A DNA stretch of 64,000 bases, from NCBI RefSeq assembly GCF_041886205.1, contig NZ_CP169029.1. The stretch is one strand, 5' to 3'. Positions 8,718 to 38,063 of the stretch are shown here, one piece after another. Source of the stretch: Escherichia coli (lineage in GTDB: Bacteria > Pseudomonadota > Gammaproteobacteria > Enterobacterales > Enterobacteriaceae). Position numbers and translations under genes: made by a program. How positions within the stretch are numbered: position 1 is the stretch's first letter; each line of letters opens with the position of its first letter. Under the pieces are notes generated by a model. It searched no databases. It saw only the letters and a list, made by a program, of their open reading frames with translations, and was not told the DNA's origin.

Positions 8718-8725
8718 CAGATAAA

Positions 8726-8795
8726 AATGCCGGAATTAATAATCCGGCATTTTACTGTTTAAGCGAAAGCGTGAGTGCCCCTCACGCTTTATTTT
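8726..8795. terminator. Tandem hairpins between convergent csgG and ycdZ
   Basis: ATGCCGGA-ATTAATAA-TCCGGCAT (8726-8750) followed by TTTTACTGTTT, then GCGTGAG-TGCCCC-TCACGC followed by TTTATTTTT. Confidence 0.5.
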
Positions 8796-15485: not shown

Positions 15486-15971
15486 TCAGTCGATGATGCG
15501 CATAATGGCGCTGCATTCCGGATGCTGCAGGGCGTAATCCCGCAACCGGTAATAATGGACCGTCATGGCATAACACTCCGTACGACAGGCGTGATGACTG
15601 TACGTCATCAGACAGGCAGCAATGCCGGCGGCTTCCGGGCTCATTTCAGCGCGGTTGCCGTTCATGGCATTGAACAGTACCCATGTTTCGTCATCATCGT
15701 CATCCGGTTCGGGGGCCATAAATGCCCCGCCGTTGTTCAGAGTGTACAGATTCCAGATACCACCGCAGTAGTCTTCGCACAGACGGTCCATCCAGCCGAA
15801 AACACGGGGCTCCAGGGTCACCCACTGTGGAATGAGGCCAAAATGCTGCGGCCAGAAGCTGATGCGCTGTTCATCAGGGACTATGGTGGCAACCAACTGA
15901 GGCTGGTCATTCCCTGATGCAGCGGTTACGGAAACAGAAGATGTGGTGGAATTATGTGAAATGGTTTTCAT
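15486..15971 (-). CDS. Antirestriction protein (KlcA/ArdB-like, YfjX family)
   Basis: 161-aa ORF abutting the radC-like gene; acidic stretch PEPDDDDDETWVLFNAMNG; typical CP4-type module order. Confidence 0.7.
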   Translation of the reverse strand: MKTISHNSTTSSVSVTAASGNDQPQLVATIVPDEQRISFWPQHFGLIPQWVTLEPRVFGWMDRLCEDYCGGIWNLYTLNNGGAFMAPEPDDDDDETWVLFNAMNGNRAEMSPEAAGIAACLMTYSHHACRTECYAMTVHYYRLRDYALQHPECSAIMRIID

Positions 15972-16025
15972 GAAATGACTCCTTAAAGGACAAATAAATG
16001 CGTGGTTTTCAGGGTAATGGCTGAA

Positions 16026-16844
16026 TCAGCGCAGGCTCTCCAGCAGCGTTTCCGCCATCACCCACAATGCGCGGTTGAGCTTAATGTCAGTGTCAATGCT
16101 GTGAATGGCACGGGTATGGATACGTTTTCCTTTAGCGCTGCGACCTGAAATTCCGCCTTTCAGCATATTCTCCTGAATGGTCTGATAAGCACTCCACAGG
16201 TCCTTACCGTAATCCTCCCGGCGTCGTGGCGTCAGAATGTCGGCGGTGGTGACGGGCTGATGTTCGTCACCATAACGGTAAGTCAGTGCCGCCTGTGCCA
16301 GCGCCTGGCGTGCCGGTGGCGGCAGAATCAGCGACTGCATGGCATCACGCTTTTCCTCAATCCGGTCAAACACGCCCACCACCTCGTAAGCCCCTTCAAT
16401 GACTCTGTCCACCACATTTCCCCGGTGCGGAACACGCACTTCCCCCAGAGACTGACCACAGACGCATCCGTTCTGGCAGACGAACCTGAAGTAACCCGGC
16501 AGCATCTGGTAGCTGGAGGTACCGTCATGAGAGTTGAGCAGAATAATTTCAGGGACATGTTCTCCGTTTATCTCTCCGGCCCGCCGCAGACGCAGCATGT
16601 GTTTTGTGTATCCCCGGCGGCCCGGGTCGCGCACACGGGTCTGGCAGGCGAAGAATGGCTGAAAGCCTTCCCGCTGCAGGCTTTCCAGTACGGTGATGGT
16701 GGGGATGTACGTATAGTTCTGGCTTCGGGACGTGTGTTTATCTTCCCCGAAAATCCCCGGCACATAGTGCATCAGTTCTTCGTGTGTCAGCGGACGGTCA
16801 CGGCGTATCTGGTTCGCATAACCAAAACGACTGGCTAGTCGCAT
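16026..16844 (-). CDS. DUF932-family protein (YafZ/YfjQ-like)
   Basis: 272-aa ORF in the conserved island module. Confidence 0.6.
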   Translation of the reverse strand: MRLASRFGYANQIRRDRPLTHEELMHYVPGIFGEDKHTSRSQNYTYIPTITVLESLQREGFQPFFACQTRVRDPGRRGYTKHMLRLRRAGEINGEHVPEIILLNSHDGTSSYQMLPGYFRFVCQNGCVCGQSLGEVRVPHRGNVVDRVIEGAYEVVGVFDRIEEKRDAMQSLILPPPARQALAQAALTYRYGDEHQPVTTADILTPRRREDYGKDLWSAYQTIQENMLKGGISGRSAKGKRIHTRAIHSIDTDIKLNRALWVMAETLLESLR

Positions 16845-16943
16845 AATTTGCTCCTTATCGGTGGTTAAGATTTACTGGTGTAATAAATGAAAAAGCCACG
16901 TCTCCCGGAGAAGACGCGGCCTGATGGGTGAAATGAATGACGT

Positions 16944-17177
16944 TTATTGTCTGAGAAGACCGTCACTGGCGAGCCGCGTATTAAGCACCTTTCCGGCATC
17001 GGGTTCAGAATTCCGGCAGCGCCAGCGTCGCTGACCTTCCGCGTTGCGGATAACCCGACGGAAATGCATTCCCGGGTCATCCTGGATAAACACATTGCGG
17101 TAAGCGGTTATGACAGCAACCGCCTGCCCGTATGAGAAAGATCCTTCAGCCAGGACATACTCTGTGTAACCCGGCAT
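16944..17177 (-). CDS. Small DUF905-like protein (YkfF-like)
   Basis: 77-aa [37 protein letters not shown]...; size and context only. Confidence 0.4.
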
Positions 17178-17255
17178 ATCTGTTTTCTCCTGATAAATAA
17201 AAAGCCTCTGCCACGCGTTGTGACAGAGGCTGAAGCATGAAACTGACTTCAGGGA

Positions 17256-17711
17256 TCAGTTAACGTTTTTTCCGGAAACGGTAATCAGCAGTGGATGGTA
17301 GTCCTGGGGATTGAAAACCGATAACGGCAGACTGACACGATGGCCGTTACTTTCTTCAGTTGCTTTAATGATTTCGGTTGTGGCGACATTTTCCACGCAC
17401 TCCGTTTCCAGAAATGCGTCTGTGGTTCGCGTGGCATTACTGTCACCAAAAGCTTCCGTTTCCATTTTTCTGGTCACCAGCGTCTGACCATATTTGTCTT
17501 TGAGTTGCAGAGTGATGGTGAGGGGGCCAAATCCTTCATCGTTTCCGCCATTATCCAGCCGGAACTGGTAAGCACAAATATTTCCCGGGAGCCATATCGT
17601 ATCTGTATTGCGTATACTGATGTAACGTTGATCCTGTGCCCGGAGTGGGGCAGACCACGTTAACCCCAGAATGAAGGCGGTAATCATGCAGGTTTTGAAC
17701 AGGTGAATCAT
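17256..17711 (-). CDS. Hypothetical secreted protein
   Basis: 151-aa ORF with N-terminal signal peptide (MIHLFKTCMITAFILGLTWSAPLRA). Confidence 0.4.
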   Translation of the reverse strand: MIHLFKTCMITAFILGLTWSAPLRAQDQRYISIRNTDTIWLPGNICAYQFRLDNGGNDEGFGPLTITLQLKDKYGQTLVTRKMETEAFGDSNATRTTDAFLETECVENVATTEIIKATEESNGHRVSLPLSVFNPQDYHPLLITVSGKNVN

Positions 17712-17786
17712 GGTATTTACCTCTCTGAGTCATGACGATGACACTGACAAATCAGGTGATAAAGCGTAAAAGGCGCAGAATAGCCG

Positions 17787-19508
17787 TTATGCCGGTAACT
17801 CCGGGGGTAATGCTTCTTCCAGTCGGTTAACCATATTGCCGAGATGGGATGCATCATATTCCATGACGGGGCGTTGCCTGATGATACTGACCACCAGTGG
17901 TTTGATTAACATATTGGTCGCGGCCCGTTGTTGTATACCGGCGGCGAAAATGATCTCCAGAGCATTCTGATCGATAACACGGGCCAGATTCTCGTTCAGA
18001 TTTTCAATCTCATGTCCGGTCAGCAGGAAACTGCCGGCAAGCCATGTCACCTGCTCCTGAATCATTGCCAGAATTTTGACGCGATCTTCTTCAACCAGCG
18101 CTCCGGCAATTTTTCCTGATACAGCGGAGGCAATCATTCCCCCCAGAACACCGCCAACCACACGCCCTGTCAGTGCACCAAATGGTCCCAGTGGACTGAA
18201 CAGTATCCCGCCCGCCACTGACCCGACAGCTCCACCTGCCACACCGGAAGATGCCACGGCAAGATTCCTGATGAACTGCGCACCGGAGATCCGTCCCCGC
18301 AACATTTTGATCATGTCAGGGCCGGTTGTGACAGCTACCAGTGCCAGAGATGTCACCAGCGTACCCTTCATTACTTTGTTCAGGGCACTGATATTTCCTG
18401 CACCGGTCCCCTTCTGAAGAGCCAGTCGGACAGTCGGGCTGGCAGTCGAAAAATCAATGTGCTTCAGCATACCCTGAACAACACTGAGCCGGTGGAGTTG
18501 CTGGGTTGTGACGTAGACAGCCAGTGTGCGGGTGAAGGTTTTTCCTGCTTGGACAGCAGCTGTCTGCAGGGCAGCATCGCGATCGCCGGTGCTGAGCCAG
18601 AAGACCGATGCCGTCAGGGCAAAACTGATCCCTCCGGCCGCCAGACTGACAACCGAACCCTCGGCAATATCATAAGTGACCGATTCGATGGTCCCGAACC
18701 GGGTGATATTACGGGCCTGAGTATAAGTCAGATGTCCCCGACGAATCAGCCGGGACGCTTCTGCGGGATCGGTTACACCGGGTACTTTACCTTCGCGGAT
18801 CTTATTCCTCATGGTTTCAACAGCGCCGGCATACTGATCACGGGGGACTTCCAGTTGCATGGGGCCATTATTTCCCATGTAACGATACTGTCCGTTTTGT
18901 CCGTCGAATGCCGCACCGACGCTACGGGCTGCAGTTGAACAATATTTCGTCTGGATTTCTGTTCCGCTGACCAGTCTGTCTGCTCCATTTCTGGCATTAT
19001 TATCACCGAGGATCCGTGCGTTTTTCAGACGGACTCTGTCGACAATATGGTTTCCCCGTTCAGCGGCAAACCCATGTCCCTGCCCTCCGGAAGCAAACAT
19101 TTTCTCATTTGTACTCCAGGTTTCCGGCAGTTTCATGAGAATCAGACCATTCGCCGTTGCATCGGAAATAAAGCTGTTGTAAGGGCGTTCATAAATTTCC
19201 TGACACAGTGTTTCTGTTTCGCGACAAAGAGAGGAGCAGTACCATTCCGGATCCGGCTTATGATTTTCCGGGGCATGATGTACTTCTGTCAGCCCGCAGG
19301 AGGCACAGATACGAAGCTCATCCACGTGATGGAATGATACAAAACGGCGACCTTCTGAAAAGGGATACCAGTCACCGCCGTCCAGGCAACGATCGAGAAA
19401 ATCGTCATTCGCTTCCGGTGATAAATTCAGGCGGTTCCGGAAGAGCGTTTTCAGTTCATCAGGTGTGAATGACAGGTTCTCTTTCAACTGTTCGTTAAAC
19501 CCTGCCAT
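17787..19508 (-). CDS. YeeR-like inner membrane protein
   Basis: 573-aa ORF with Cys-rich N-terminal segment and Gly/Ala-rich hydrophobic segments; position downstream of flu as yeeR in CP4-44. Confidence 0.5.
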   Translation of the reverse strand: MAGFNEQLKENLSFTPDELKTLFRNRLNLSPEANDDFLDRCLDGGDWYPFSEGRRFVSFHHVDELRICASCGLTEVHHAPENHKPDPEWYCSSLCRETETLCQEIYERPYNSFISDATANGLILMKLPETWSTNEKMFASGGQGHGFAAERGNHIVDRVRLKNARILGDNNARNGADRLVSGTEIQTKYCSTAARSVGAAFDGQNGQYRYMGNNGPMQLEVPRDQYAGAVETMRNKIREGKVPGVTDPAEASRLIRRGHLTYTQARNITRFGTIESVTYDIAEGSVVSLAAGGISFALTASVFWLSTGDRDAALQTAAVQAGKTFTRTLAVYVTTQQLHRLSVVQGMLKHIDFSTASPTVRLALQKGTGAGNISALNKVMKGTLVTSLALVAVTTGPDMIKMLRGRISGAQFIRNLAVASSGVAGGAVGSVAGGILFSPLGPFGALTGRVVGGVLGGMIASAVSGKIAGALVEEDRVKILAMIQEQVTWLAGSFLLTGHEIENLNENLARVIDQNALEIIFAAGIQQRAATNMLIKPLVVSIIRQRPVMEYDASHLGNMVNRLEEALPPELPA

Positions 19509-19520
19509 GTTTCTTTCATA

Positions 19521-20309
19521 CTAGGCATTGTTCAGTAACCAGTTTCCGTCTGCCAGTTCAAATTCCCTCAGCTCTCCCCGGGAAATCCGTTGAGAAATGA
19601 GCGTCAGCCAGATGCGCTCCGTCAGTGAGTCAGGAAGGCTGTAATCGTTTTGCAAACTGGTCAGCCACGATTTACTGTTGAGCACCGGTTGTTCTTCCAG
19701 TGTCTGGCTGATGGCACAGGTCAGTTTTTTCAGCGCCTGGATCTGGCTGGCTGCCCATAGCAGCGTCACTAATGCAGCCAGCCAGTACAACAACCCGCCC
19801 CACCACATCAGTGACGGTGAAATATCGTACTGTAACGCGATCAATGGTGCGCATGCAGAACACGCCATAAGGAAAAAGGCAGTATAAAAACAGCAGTAAT
19901 ACCCGTTAATTTCCTTGCTGATATCTTCTGGTGTGATCCCGTTCTGCTGAATGTTTTTGATCTGCAGGGGAACAGCCAGCAGACCACCGGCGAGAGCGGT
20001 GGTCAGAATAAATTTCACAGAGTCAAAGGTGTGAGCCTCCAGCGCGATATGTTTACCATCAAGTCCCCACATGAAGCTGATGATCATTCCGGCAATCGTC
20101 AGAAATACGCCTGCCAGCCAGCGAACATGGAACAACCGGGTTATGCGTTCGGTGATATAGCCAGCCAGTAAGGCCGGGCCGAACAGACACAGCAATATGA
20201 GCCCTGCCAGCGCAGAAGCCGTGCTGATTAATGCTCTGAACAAAAGGCGAAGAATGGCAAATCCTGCGATCAGCAGGATCAGCGCGCCGACTATCTGTAA
20301 CATAGTCAC
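19521..20309 (-). CDS. Hypothetical polytopic inner membrane protein
   Basis: 262-aa ORF with several hydrophobic helices; immediately downstream of flu. Confidence 0.45.
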   Translation of the reverse strand: MTMLQIVGALILLIAGFAILRLLFRALISTASALAGLILLCLFGPALLAGYITERITRLFHVRWLAGVFLTIAGMIISFMWGLDGKHIALEAHTFDSVKFILTTALAGGLLAVPLQIKNIQQNGITPEDISKEINGYYCCFYTAFFLMACSACAPLIALQYDISPSLMWWGGLLYWLAALVTLLWAASQIQALKKLTCAISQTLEEQPVLNSKSWLTSLQNDYSLPDSLTERIWLTLISQRISRGELREFELADGNWLLNNA

Positions 20310-20423
20310 TCCGTGATGAATATCATGTTATTGTTAATGCCAGCGAATGTGGCGTTGAAGATCCGTTGCGCCGGTCCGGGTCCCGGTCATGATGACCGGG
20401 ACCACAGAGAGGCGATGGTTCTG

Positions 20424-24554: not shown

Positions 24555-24870
24555 CGGAAAGGTGGCGGGGGATTCACAACGATAATATCTGTCTGAAATT
24601 ATTTGGAATGCAGGTATATGCAGCTAATTTGTATCGGCTCATTAGTACAGAACTAAACCTCATCTGACAGTCCGCTCTATGTCATAAGCGGTCCTTATAT
24701 ACACTAAGGTAGAATTGTCTTCTGGGGCGGGGTTGTCCAAATAAAATCCTAAAGTATCTAATTTATACGTAGTGATTCAGTATCATGTGCTACGTGTTGA
24801 ATTATAAATTTAGTTTAAATTGGTTGTTTAGATATCTGCATGATAACTATCAGACCATTGTGGAGTATTT

Positions 24871-25389
24871 ATGACGATTCTTGAAGAAATGGAAGCAGAA
24901 GCATGGCATATCCTAACAACCATCTATACGTATCAGCGGTTGATGGAAGGCCTTACTAATAGCAGTACAAGATATGAGCTTGCCAATCAGTTGGTAGCCC
25001 TCAATGCATTGTTGGAAATGTTGGTGATCCGTTTAGCGCGTCTTGCGGATAAAAGGAAAGATGTGAGATCTGTATCAATGTTTTTGAAACGCGGCTCGTA
25101 TTCTGCTTCACCAGAGGCTGTGAAATTGGCAGCTGAAAAGTTCCTTGCACTCACAGAACCAGTATTAAAGATTAGGCATGAGCAGATTGCACATATGAAG
25201 CCCGGCACACTCAGTAGCTTCGAGCCTCGAGAACTTCCAAATGAAGCTCTGAGAGCAACTGAGGCTCTAATCGATCTCATTGACATTGCCAGAGGTCACC
25301 CTCAGTCTTACACATACCGAGTTGGCTCACAGGAGCCTGCCATTAATTTGAGAGCTTCAGTAGAGACTAGCGAACTAGTTAAAATCTAA
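24871..25389 (+). CDS. Hypothetical protein, 172 aa, possible HEPN-like R-x5-H motif
   Basis: ORF in AT-rich DNA; contains KIRHEQIAHMK; no family recognised; convergent with the 459-aa gene. Confidence 0.5.
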   Translation: MTILEEMEAEAWHILTTIYTYQRLMEGLTNSSTRYELANQLVALNALLEMLVIRLARLADKRKDVRSVSMFLKRGSYSASPEAVKLAAEKFLALTEPVLKIRHEQIAHMKPGTLSSFEPRELPNEALRATEALIDLIDIARGHPQSYTYRVGSQEPAINLRASVETSELVKI

Positions 25390-25411
25390 TAATTCACTCA
25401 AGTCTATGCTA

Positions 25412-25439
25412 CTTTGCCGAGTTGCTTTACTCGGCAAAG
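25412..25439. terminator. Hairpin between convergent genes (bidirectional terminator candidate)
   Basis: Perfect 11-bp stem CTTTGCCGAGT / ACTCGGCAAAG with 6-nt loop. Confidence 0.5.
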
Positions 25440-25525
25440 TAATTAGCTCCCCGTTAATAACAGATCCGGCAGCCCCTCAACCTTTTTGCTTAAGTGAATA
25501 TATTTTCACAATATTTCCTACTGCT

Positions 25526-26905
25526 TCAGTCATAAAATTTATTTTTGCCTTTTGACGTCATGAGAAGGAAATATGAAGGGTGACTCTTTATTTCTGAAGA
25601 GTGGCTTGTTATACTAAAAACCTCTTTTAGAATCGTAAAGGCTCCTGTAGCCAACGACACTGGATTTGGTGCCCCAATAAAACCTATCAATGATGGCGCA
25701 ATGTTAAGAAAAAGTTCTTTATTACTTTTCCGCTTATAGGTCTGTATTTTTTGCTCAATATCGGTCAATCCTTCATCCCATATGCGCTCGACAAAATGCT
25801 GATTTATCAGCTGCCTCTTATATGGGTCACTTTCTGCTTCTATGTCATACGCAGCTTCACGTAGCACAGAGCGGAAGGCATTAAAACTCGATTCGTAGTC
25901 AGTTCTAATTTTGTAGAGTTCACTTGGAGTAAGCCCCTCTAGAAATGGAACGTCAATAGAGAGTTTAACCCTCTGAACTTCATTCCTTTGATCCAGTTTA
26001 CGAAGAATTTCTCCATGAAATGGGCAATATGCGCCCAGGGACGCTCTGCATGAATGCGCTTGGTTAAGATCAGTAATAAGGTTTTTATAATGAAAGAGAA
26101 CTGTACGATTTTTTGCTCCCTGCACCCACCGTTCATAACTTTTTTTTCCGCTATGCTTTCCCATGACAATTTCCATAGACATGGTACCATCATCATTATC
26201 AATGGCATTATTTATATGTTGATACATATATCCATTTGTATACGAGCTTTCGCAGCCTTTAATTTTCAACATAATTTCATTCGTTAAAACATTTCTGTTT
26301 AACAACCGAATTTTATTTGTGTTGCCCAGACGTTCTATATTCTGTACGGATAGTCTACTTTCATACAGACGGGCAATATTAGGGGGGAGATATCGAAATA
26401 GGAAATTAGTATCAGAGTTATCTTCTAAAATTCCATTAGCTCTCTCCGAATCTTTAATAGAGGATTCTCTTCGTACAAAAACGATAAACTCTCCACGGAT
26501 AAGATCAAAGTTTTCTTTAGCAAACCTGATAAACCTAGCAATTTCCTTCCTGAGATGTTCAACCTTCTCTTTGCTATCGCTTTCAATAAATTTTTCAACT
26601 ACGTTTTCTGATAGATTTACCCTGTATCGTAGGCTCAATGAATATAGAACGTCATCAAGAATGACTCTGTCCATTGAAAACAAACCACTCTTATACCTTT
26701 CAATATTACGATTCCCCGCCATGTAAACATTCAGCCGGGACTCCTGTACAGAATTTGTTTGTTCGATAATGAATGAATCTATCCTTTTATTATATTCAGC
26801 TAATTCAACTAGCAATTCGTTCAATCCGATATTTTCATATTCCTGTTCTAAAAGTCGATCAACCCAAAAAAGGCTTTCTGTGAGCGCATAGAGGTTGTTG
26901 TACAT
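25526..26905 (-). CDS. Hypothetical protein, 459 aa, no recognisable domain
   Basis: Long uninterrupted ORF in visibly AT-rich DNA, Lys/Glu/Asn-rich, no TM segments; sits between the GTPase and the type I RM operon. Confidence 0.6.
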   Translation of the reverse strand: MYNNLYALTESLFWVDRLLEQEYENIGLNELLVELAEYNKRIDSFIIEQTNSVQESRLNVYMAGNRNIERYKSGLFSMDRVILDDVLYSLSLRYRVNLSENVVEKFIESDSKEKVEHLRKEIARFIRFAKENFDLIRGEFIVFVRRESSIKDSERANGILEDNSDTNFLFRYLPPNIARLYESRLSVQNIERLGNTNKIRLLNRNVLTNEIMLKIKGCESSYTNGYMYQHINNAIDNDDGTMSMEIVMGKHSGKKSYERWVQGAKNRTVLFHYKNLITDLNQAHSCRASLGAYCPFHGEILRKLDQRNEVQRVKLSIDVPFLEGLTPSELYKIRTDYESSFNAFRSVLREAAYDIEAESDPYKRQLINQHFVERIWDEGLTDIEQKIQTYKRKSNKELFLNIAPSLIGFIGAPNPVSLATGAFTILKEVFSITSHSSEIKSHPSYFLLMTSKGKNKFYD

Positions 26906-27857
26906 ACTAGCTCCTTTTTACCAAGCTTCAGTACTGTGTTCTCAAGATTACTCAGTGGTTTTCACACAGAGTGCACTCTCATTTTACATTTAAATGTACT
27001 TCCTAGCATCCTGCTGTTAGTGCCGGATTACAGCACTTATCAACTGTATATTTAGAAAACAAACTGCGCATAATCCTAGTGAGTTGTTATGTCCGCTCCT
27101 CGCTCAAAGCAGACCATTCGCTCAGTTAACGCATCAGTGTCGTGCTAAAAGTAGACGTGGTTAACAACAATGTGAGTTAATCAACGGAGAGCAGGTCAAC
27201 TCTAACCTGTATCAAAAAAACAAATGTGTCACAAAGATGCCGCATGCCTTAATTTGAGTATAATTGAGACGGAAGTAGACGGTTTATGGCTAAATATTGT
27301 TGATATATAGCTATTTGAAGAGTTGTAGCGCAAGTGTATAGCCCAAACTAATAACGCTACCCCTTACCTTTGACGCCTCTTATCAAAGAGCTGCGATGAT
27401 GCACAGCCCGCACGAGGCAATATTCGCACAAGAATCAGGTTCAGAAATAACCTGCTCTGGCATGGTGGGGAGAGTATCACTGATCAGGCTTTCGTTAAGA
27501 TGCGGCGGGATGAGGCCGTGTTGCGTGAGTTGCAGCAGTACAAGATCGCCCGCAGAGGGTAAGCTACAGCGCGAGATCCTAGGTTTCTATCAGGGATTCG
27601 GCAAAGCGGGCGCAGTTGTCGACCAAGGCGGTGAAATCTATAGTGGCATTATAAGGGAACGAACAATAGATCGAGTAAATCGCAGTCAGGGACAAGGATT
27701 GTAGTCTATAGAGAAGTCTCCTGTAACGGTTTTCAGGAGGCTAATTCCGACGCCTGATTTTGCAGGCGCGGAGGGAGAGGATACTGCGACCATTAATCCG
27801 CCACAAAGCATTTACGTGCATAAATCACGCAGTCAGATCCGACTCTCACTGTAGTTC

Positions 27858-28094
27858 TTGAACCTGATACCACATTTAGCTAATTTAGCTAACTTATCCA
27901 GTATACCAGTGGTTGCCATGAATATGAATGAAGACGAGATTTATCGTCATATCCGGCAGGCACTTTCCAGTGCGCCGCGTAACCAGTACACCGTCGAGCT
28001 GCACCTGCAAATGATTAAATATGCCGACGAACTGGAACACATTACGGCAAAAGCCTTTTGCGAAGGCACCGGTCTGAATACCGATCTGCTGTAA
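27858..28094 (+). CDS. Small hypothetical ORF upstream of hsdM
   Basis: 78-aa ORF (possible internal start MNMNEDEIYRHIRQ...) ending 40 bp before hsdM; no family recognised. Confidence 0.25.
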   Translation: MNLIPHLANLANLSSIPVVAMNMNEDEIYRHIRQALSSAPRNQYTVELHLQMIKYADELEHITAKAFCEGTGLNTDLL

Positions 28095-28133
28095 CCGACT
28101 TACGGCACATTATCGCGCAAAACGAGATATTTA

Positions 28134-38023: not shown

Positions 38024-38063
38024 CGACTCGCCGATGACTTGCCATAGAGTCATCGGCGAGTCG
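38024..38063. repeat. Perfect 16-bp inverted repeat (hairpin) with 8-nt loop
   Basis: CGACTCGCCGATGACT-TGCCATAG-AGTCATCGGCGAGTCG; no flanking T/A run, so not a classical terminator. Confidence 0.45.

Follow-up and report, generated by a model that had tools for sequence, protein, structure and literature searches.

A gene for an HEPN_AbiU2 protein and a gene of a family without recognized domains lie tail to tail beside a type I restriction-modification/DarTG locus of Escherichia coli

Results

In a 64,000-nt stretch of Escherichia coli DNA (contig NZ_CP169029.1 of assembly GCF_041886205.1; hereafter the window) we analyzed two convergent open reading frames (ORFs), here called ORF A and ORF B, that lie on a genomic island beside a type I restriction-modification (R-M) and DarTG locus. 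The positions, lengths and convergent orientation given for them in an initial annotation of this DNA were confirmed (Table 1). RefSeq labels both products 'hypothetical protein' in the identical loci of O157:H7; chromosomes of O157:H7-type E. coli are 100% identical to the window, and in them the island adjoins a tRNA-Ser gene near infA. In gene order, a CP4-44-like module (YeeU/CbtA, antirestriction, Cah autotransporter, GTPase) precedes ORF A, the flank of that side being formed by the GTPase and Cah autotransporter genes. On the other side, ORF B is followed by an insertion sequence (IS)/helix-turn-helix (HTH) pseudogene fragment, then by hsdM-hsdS-darT-darG-hsdR-M48 and a contact-dependent inhibition (CDI) locus. 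The GC content is 0.445 for the ORF A coding sequence and 0.371 for that of ORF B; the GTPase gene reaches 0.581, hsdM 0.529 and the window as a whole 0.497, bearing out the earlier remark that both genes are more AT-rich than the flanking GTPase and hsd genes. The ratio of nonsynonymous to synonymous substitution rates (dN/dS) against homologues of other genera was 0.12-0.21 for ORF A and 0.13-0.19 for ORF B, and this purifying selection on both indicates that they are real genes.

Aligning the DNA with loci where just one of the two genes is present revealed that each lies in a DNA module of its own and that the modules meet tail to tail. The loci compared for ORF B were those of Pectobacterium, Serratia marcescens, a Morganella P2-like prophage, the E. 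coli E24377A lambdoid prophage and IMG/VR contigs. The separate acquisition suggested earlier fits these boundaries as well as the low GC. ORF B without ORF A was found in Pectobacterium, Morganella, Serratia, Pantoea, E. coli E24377A and IMG/VR prophages, and ORF A without ORF B in Marinobacter, Vibrio, Pseudomonas and Citrobacter; the two did not co-occur in any of ~15 contexts outside this E. coli island. A search of sequences clustered at 90% returned 88 clusters for ORF A, spread across Proteobacteria including Marinobacter, Halomonas, Kerstersia, Pseudomonas and Vibrio, and 26 clusters for ORF B, whose named sources were Enterobacterales except for one metagenome bin labelled Anaerovoracaceae. 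Among 5426 complete E. coli genomes ORF A is present in 50 and ORF B in 56, and 43 E. coli genomes hold the contiguous 2.7-kb segment with both; the two are mostly together within E. coli because those genomes inherited one island segment. Neither co-orientation in an operon nor conserved co-occurrence, as looked for in a two-gene toxin-antitoxin (TA) or sensor-effector system, was found. Given that the genes are convergent and stand in separate modules, each with its own upstream region, we concluded that they are not one unit. The framing of the locus as a gene pair was therefore abandoned, since the genes also differ in phyletic range and each stands alone outside the island, ORF B even in E. 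coli E24377A. On balance we favor reading the locus as two unrelated, self-contained modules of one gene each, both horizontally mobile, that came to lie tail to tail beside the type I R-M/DarTG genes.

Table 1. Features of the two modules, numbered by position in the window
Feature	Position	Strand	Description
ORF A module	24689-25491		Homology to A-only locus (Citrobacter braakii prophage end)
ORF A module, 5' part	24689-24870	+	Presumed promoter and conserved GGAG ribosome-binding site; ~81% identity to the region upstream of the Citrobacter homologue, from 24689
ORF A	24871-25389	+	172 aa; RefSeq WP_000153724.1
Codons R102-H-E-Q-I-A-H108	25174-25194	+	Rx5H putative catalytic motif; RHEQIAH = residues 102-108
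Hairpin TACTTTGCCGAGT-tgcttt-ACTCGGCAAAGTA	25410-25441		Perfect 13-bp stem, 6-nt loop; ORF A 3' flank
Tail-to-tail junction of modules	25479-25491		A-only homology stops at 25491; B-only homology starts at 25479-25534
ORF B module	25479-27110 (approx.)		Homology to B-only loci
ORF B	25526-26905	-	459 aa; RefSeq WP_000282642.1
Conserved hydrophobic segment, ORF B residues ~398-426	25628-25714	-	Possible membrane anchor or re-entrant hairpin; placed by alignment position
ORF B upstream region	26906-27110	-	Conserved, presumed promoter/operator; ~200 bp carried with ORF B in all contexts
-10-like TAAAAT	26981-26986	-	Beside the palindrome
Invariant palindrome ACATTTAAATGT	26986-26997		In ORF B upstream region

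The initial annotation had recognized no family for either protein and had noted that RHEQIAH in ORF A is compatible with the motif of HEPN ribonucleases (RNases). Against Pfam, residues 8-110 of ORF A match HEPN_AbiU2 (PF18734) at E=7.7e-5, and when 46 homologues were scanned singly against this model, 25 matched at E<=1e-3 and 45 at E<=0.1. For the allele WP_000153723.1, the DefensePredictor tables (PMC13092281) list an HHsearch match to PF18734 with a probability of 97.3% and E=8.3e-8. The AlphaFold2 model of ORF A has a predicted local distance difference test (pLDDT) score of 87.6 and shows helices at residues 3-26, 34-58, 81-106 and 124-141 with an insert at 59-80. RHEQIAH lies at the end of helix 81-106, the third helix, and the canonical position of the HEPN motif, Rx4-6H with a polar residue after the arginine, is likewise the end of helix 3 (PMC3710099). 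In an alignment of the 46 homologues, which reach down to 37% identity, at least 90% share R102, H103 and A107 (with Asn in place of H103 in at least one); H108, M109 and K110 do not vary, nor do R54, R57, L58, D60 and R66. ORF A also agrees with all three criteria for the HEPN superfamily that we took from Anantharaman et al. 2013 (PMC3710099). The Pfam matches, the published HHsearch result, the confident helical-bundle model and the conserved motif at the end of helix 3 together place ORF A in the HEPN_AbiU2 family, so that the earlier guess from a single motif is well backed while the statement that no family is recognizable fails for this gene. Judged from the family, ORF A is very probably an RNase-type abortive-infection effector.

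To characterize the surroundings in which ORF A travels, we inspected the loci of its homologues. Those of Vibrio vulnificus and Marinobacter nauticus are integron cassettes of a single gene with attC-type repeats (TAACAA...GCGTTAT) on both sides, each standing in a long array of small co-oriented genes. These arrays (L013:6000-16519 and L017:1-16543), whose cassettes are clearly bounded by attC repeat families, also hold further cassettes that may serve in conflict, among them HEPN_AbiV, Imm32, acetyltransferase and NUDIX cassettes. In Citrobacter the homologue is the last cargo gene of a prophage, beside a truncated icd, and the Pseudomonas copy occupies a short insert flanked by core genes. 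A conserved partner gene was seen at none of the homologue loci examined. No attC core sites were seen around ORF A of the window by eye, no dedicated attC model having been applied. The non-coding parts of the ORF A module contain no conserved ORF of at least 20 codons; a 29-codon ORF at 24785-24874 overlaps the ORF A start (ATGA), but a role as leader or coupled partner was rejected for want of conservation in Citrobacter, and this ORF is probably spurious.

Compared with known HEPN systems, ORF A shares with HEPN_AbiU2 proteins the four-helix layout, the Rx4-6H motif at the end of helix 3, the polar residue after the arginine and the R-M neighbors, an R-M association having been noted for AbiU2 (PMC3710099). 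It differs in that its own hidden Markov model score is weak, that it is short and stands alone without an AbiU1-like or Sel1-repeat partner, and that its homologues are proteobacterial integron cassettes and prophage-end cargo rather than lactococcal plasmid genes. A same-operon partner as in the lactococcal AbiU locus (abiU1 and abiU2) was not found, the neighbors of ORF A being the divergent GTPase gene and the convergent ORF B, and ORF B has no Abi match in PADLOC. The V. mimicus MB461 protein HNPBCG_15845, compared with ORF A here by domain and context, has the same Pfam domain and the same single-gene sedentary-integron cassette context as the V. vulnificus and Marinobacter homologues, together with a predicted dimer and a proposed abortive-infection mechanism. 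It was cloned only together with other cassettes, and ORF A of E. coli differs from it in having no recognizable attC flanks. Neither the integron-cassette HEPN protein Vpc_cass2 (PDB 3jrt) nor the HEPN-MNT toxins (PDB 7ae2 and 5yep) have detectable sequence similarity to ORF A, and generic helical bundles score equally or better against it than these three. No adjacent nucleotidyltransferase antitoxin gene, as in HEPN-MNT pairs, was found at ORF A or in the cassettes of its homologues.

For ORF B the earlier statement stands: searches of Pfam, PADLOC, NCBIfam, PHROG and PDB gave no meaningful match. Weak matches to Csm5, CdiI_2, pRN1 and DUF6236 were at chance level; in PADLOC-DB v2.0.0 ORF B drew only the chance-level Csm5 match (E=0.012), and its Cronobacter relative and the remote member P0138 drew none. 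PDB sequence searches with family profiles of ORF A and ORF B likewise yielded nothing meaningful, and the neighbors of ORF B in the AlphaFold database are all uncharacterized. An exhaustive profile search nevertheless recovered a large family, with 331 cluster representatives at E<=1e-3 and 96 at E<=1e-10, most of them full-length (~450 aa) and ranging from Enterobacterales to Bacteroidota, Myxococcota and Actinobacteria; a profile-based word-index search gave no further named relatives. The protein is laid out as a soluble N-terminal alpha/beta and beta-rich region followed by long helices and a C-terminal hydrophobic segment. Of 70 family members, 61 have their most hydrophobic stretch of 19 residues at this same place in the alignment; AlphaFold2 confidence is low over the segment, and a conserved HPSYFLL / NPxYFLW tail follows it. 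The searches and models made here resolve ORF A as HEPN_AbiU2 with a confident model and leave ORF B without a recognizable family (model pLDDT 64).

The region upstream of ORF B aligns among E. coli, Pectobacterium, S. marcescens, the Morganella P2 prophage, the lambdoid prophage and an IMG/VR contig, and its sequence conservation suggests a regulatory role. The E24377A copy has a 34-bp deletion in this conserved 5' leader relative to the others. In the E24377A and IMG/VR lambdoid prophages the ORF B allele (WP_000282641.1 in E24377A, 91.5% identical and without ORF A) is accompanied by a divergent full-length PD-T4-3 gene (E=6e-138) and then a gene for an HNH protein (L024:10001-13828 for E24377A). 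ORF B of the Morganella P2-like prophage has the gpA replication gene on one side and the portal gene on the other, an interval known as a cargo hotspot of P2, and a gene for a 534-aa kinase matching PD-T4-6 models at E~1e-30 follows 66 nt on. An integrase island of S. marcescens has ORF B and a 534-aa kinase gene in the same arrangement, the kinase being assigned there by Pfam Pkinase. The spacing of 66 nt between ORF B and this Ser/Thr kinase gene is equal in the Morganella and S. marcescens elements (L005:8001-11033 and L009:8001-11038), and neither the E. coli nor the Pectobacterium copy is accompanied by the kinase gene; the two genes may be an optional two-gene variant or simply neighbors. 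On a Pantoea plasmid or integrative conjugative element ORF B lies beside genes for an SMEK_N protein and YafQ/RelB. ORF B thus resembles PD-T4-3 and PD-T4-6, known from an E. coli pangenome screen and represented by PADLOC-DB models, in its lone-gene lifestyle in prophage and island cargo sites, and genes of the PD-T4-3 type or for a PD-T4-6-type kinase are its direct neighbors in three elements, whereas ORF B itself matches no PADLOC model. A tblastn search of a phage genome collection found no relative of ORF B, and in the IMG/VR scan the lambdoid-prophage allele was the sole match.

Full-length relatives with 38-39% identity to ORF B are carried by 78 plasmids, mostly of Klebsiella, of which 54 are predicted to be conjugative. 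Inspection of five plasmid contexts revealed a recurrent association with pif genes. On Cronobacter pSP291-2 and Enterobacter pSurvcare220 a gap of 10 nt separates the relative from a true PifC orthologue upstream (85-86% identity to F PifC), and on K. pneumoniae pBckp067 the same gap separates it from a PifC-like gene (36% identity to F PifC). The Rahnella relative comes behind a PifC-like gene (49%) and then a PifA homologue (44% over 717 aa). On a K. pneumoniae IncR plasmid the relative lies near Ppl and a second gene pair of a regulator and a P-loop NTPase. Other neighbors include DUF4238, an HEPN nuclease, DUF262 and SLATT. In the F plasmid itself pifC is followed by pifA, with no B-like gene downstream of pifA, and the IncF-like pif operon is variable (L019:6902-9374, L022:6902-9374, L021:4519-9374, L023:12446-15761). 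PifA, the T7 exclusion protein of F that is under PifC control, is membrane-associated, and ORF B has its conserved hydrophobic segment near the C-terminus; like ORF B it is a single protein on mobile elements, and relatives of ORF B take the slot directly after true PifC orthologues. Unlike PifA, ORF B has no P-loop NTPase domain, and the window copy has its own upstream region in place of PifC, the position downstream of PifC being that of the Cronobacter, Enterobacter, Klebsiella and Rahnella relatives (PifC 36-86% identical to that of F). ORF B was also considered as a homologue of PifA or 'PifB'; comparison of a 70-sequence profile with F PifA by hhalign gave a probability of 0.3%, and no P-loop was matched in Pfam. 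ORF B would most likely be a functional analogue of PifA, alike in outcome only, and not its homologue. The occupation of the pifA slot by relatives of ORF B was not found in the literature searched, whose main texts also contain neither WP accession of ORF A and ORF B.

Three remote members of the ORF B family, with 17-19% identity in the family alignment, were examined as well. One lies between a restriction endonuclease gene and genes for a Toprim-topoisomerase and GmrSD, in a cluster with SNF2, methyltransferase and helicase genes; another is immediately preceded by McrBC and an Eco57I-type gene and has PemK and an integrase in its vicinity; and the third follows an HNH gene near genes for a KAP NTPase and a Schlafen/AlbA_2 protein. 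Defence-type contexts recur for homologues of both ORF A and ORF B, and the placement in a defence island proposed earlier holds at the locus itself and for the homologues of both genes elsewhere.

The perfect hairpin reported between the genes is real, whereas the 11-bp stem given for it (25412-25439) is the core of a 13-bp stem. Perfect hairpins with stems of at least 11 bp number five in the window against 0.1 expected from composition-preserving block shuffles, and folding of the 146-nt intergenic sequence gives a z-score of -4.7. The Citrobacter ORF A locus keeps the hairpin with one stem mismatch; given this and its position inside the boundaries of the ORF A module, we assigned it to that module. 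With neither strand showing a T-tract and no call from the terminator scan, a canonical intrinsic terminator is unsupported. An attC site is equally unsupported, no attC core sites being seen by eye and the structure looking unlike attC. The hairpin would probably serve both convergent genes as a shared transcript stop, or as a stabilizer of RNA ends. The four other perfect hairpins of the window, with stems of 11-16 bp, lie at 8724-8753, 20379-20403, 38024-38063 (16-bp stem) and 63635-63665, and are probably terminators or other structured elements.

Discussion

The two genes are probably independent single-gene abortive-infection modules. HEPN domains usually dimerise, and ORF A would most likely do likewise, its R-x5-H active site being a composite of the subunits. 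Once a phage infects, RNA of the cell, of the phage or of both would be cut through R102 and H108 without a metal cofactor, and this cutting would stop translation and so abort the infection. We regard a defensive function of ORF A as likely. ORF B would most likely be a stand-alone phage-exclusion or abortive-infection protein whose N-terminal body would sense infection and whose C-terminal hydrophobic region would act at the membrane. Because the gene is repeatedly and independently placed in defence slots, we lean towards a defensive role for it as well, a role read from its context; a membrane mechanism specifically is a good deal less likely and should be taken as speculation.

Several observations weigh against this interpretation. 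No phenotype exists for ORF A or ORF B, and the DefensePredictor tables of tested and of validated genes (PMC13092281), as far as these are covered here, do not include WP_000153724.1; the accession of ORF B was not found among the parts of the tables examined. For ORF A, a potentially toxic RNase, no antitoxin or regulator is visible. The contexts of ORF B come from ~17 sampled loci and amount to guilt by association, not to statistical enrichment. Its model is mediocre and has no fold match; no catalytic motif was recognized, the only invariant residues among 70 members (down to 15% identity) being Y38, D85 and W260; and the Kyte-Doolittle mean of its hydrophobic segment, 1.0-2.1, is borderline for a transmembrane segment. 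No PifC stands beside ORF B in the window, where tblastn finds no PifC remnant either. Finally, some E. coli genomes have a disrupted or shortened ORF B: CEA601S carries it as separate fragments with IS3 behind them (L025:8001-10540), and several others cover just 85-88% of it.

Part of this evidence suits a different view of ORF B, namely that it is cargo of mobile elements with a function other than phage defence, such as anti-defence, competition between elements or plasmid exclusion, an addiction toxin or a host-interaction factor. The decay of the gene in some strains fits such a role, as do the lack of homology to validated defence proteins and of a recognized effector domain, and non-defence morons also ride the cargo hotspots of prophages and plasmids. 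Nevertheless, validated defence genes directly adjoin ORF B in independent elements and phyla, and its relatives hold the position of pifA under the PifC repressor. In addition, the DefensePredictor tables list, on an ECOR contig, a 179-aa 'predicted novel defense gene' at the same offset from ORF A as the ORF B fragment of CEA601S; since the offsets match, we read this gene as a likely fragment of ORF B, and its log-odds of 5.1 speak, weakly, for defence. Taken together, we consider non-defensive cargo rather unlikely.

For ORF A the alternative is an HEPN toxin that mainly stabilizes the island or integron array by post-segregational killing instead of acting against phages. Chromosomal integron arrays are known to be stabilized by TA cassettes. 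A V. mimicus integron cassette encoding a protein with an HEPN AbiU2 domain could not be cloned alone, which hints at toxicity; the same cassette, however, came from phage selection and was reported to protect against T4 and T7 (bioRxiv 10.64898/2026.03.17.712381). Moreover, neither the ORF A module nor the cassettes of its homologues contain an antitoxin gene, and the AbiU2 family, described in 2013, takes its name from an abortive-infection gene of Lactococcus (PMC3710099). DefensePredictor (Science 2026, PMC13092281) also scores ORF A highly: in its tables WP_000153724.1 is a 'Predicted novel defense gene' with mean log-odds of 10.6. Addiction as the main role of ORF A is accordingly improbable. 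That the two genes form one system, with ORF B as sensor or antitoxin of an HEPN toxin A, is very improbable even though HEPN toxins generally require a partner to silence them and the E. coli copies are mostly together (43 contiguous among 50 of ORF A and 56 of ORF B), since the genes are convergent with separately conserved upstream regions, differ in phyletic range, do not co-occur in the ~15 contexts outside the island, owe their co-occurrence in E. coli to one inherited segment, and since the homologues of ORF A are single-gene cassettes with no space for a partner.

With both genes read as separate defence modules, the initial claim of novelty divides between them. ORF A belongs to a family known since 2013 and, as the DefensePredictor tables show, has already been flagged computationally, whereas ORF B, without a recognizable family, is the novel element of the locus. 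Candidate defence genes in islands are now common. The interest of ORF A lies in providing an E. coli example of a partner-less HEPN_AbiU2 protein, in tying integron cassettes, prophage ends and genomic islands together as carriers of one small defence gene, and in raising the question of how such an RNase is silenced when it has no antitoxin. Of the two genes, ORF B offers the better lead, its family of 331 clusters being without a known domain; should it protect against phage, it would represent a new family of defence proteins and turn the classical pif locus into a modular defence hotspot. Tentatively, ORF B may found a widespread, multi-phylum family of single-protein abortive-infection or exclusion proteins with an undescribed fold and C-terminal hydrophobic action, and the PifC-controlled pif locus may be a swap site for unrelated exclusion genes, either PifA or relatives of ORF B. 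Such a swap site, if true, would mirror the cargo hotspots of P2 and lambdoid prophages. Both genes are compact and come with presumed promoter regions of their own.

Other features of the island

Between the ORF B module and hsdM, the stretch at 27110-28100 is without homology to the B-only loci and includes, at 27858-28094, the HTH-like pseudogene fragment annotated in the identical RefSeq locus; it looks like a junction scar of earlier insertions. At ~15957-20310, on the minus strand of the same island, RefSeq annotation of the identical locus gives adjacent genes for a patatin-like phospholipase, an RdcB-family protein and a dynamin-family protein, a cluster that could be a further conflict or defence-type module.

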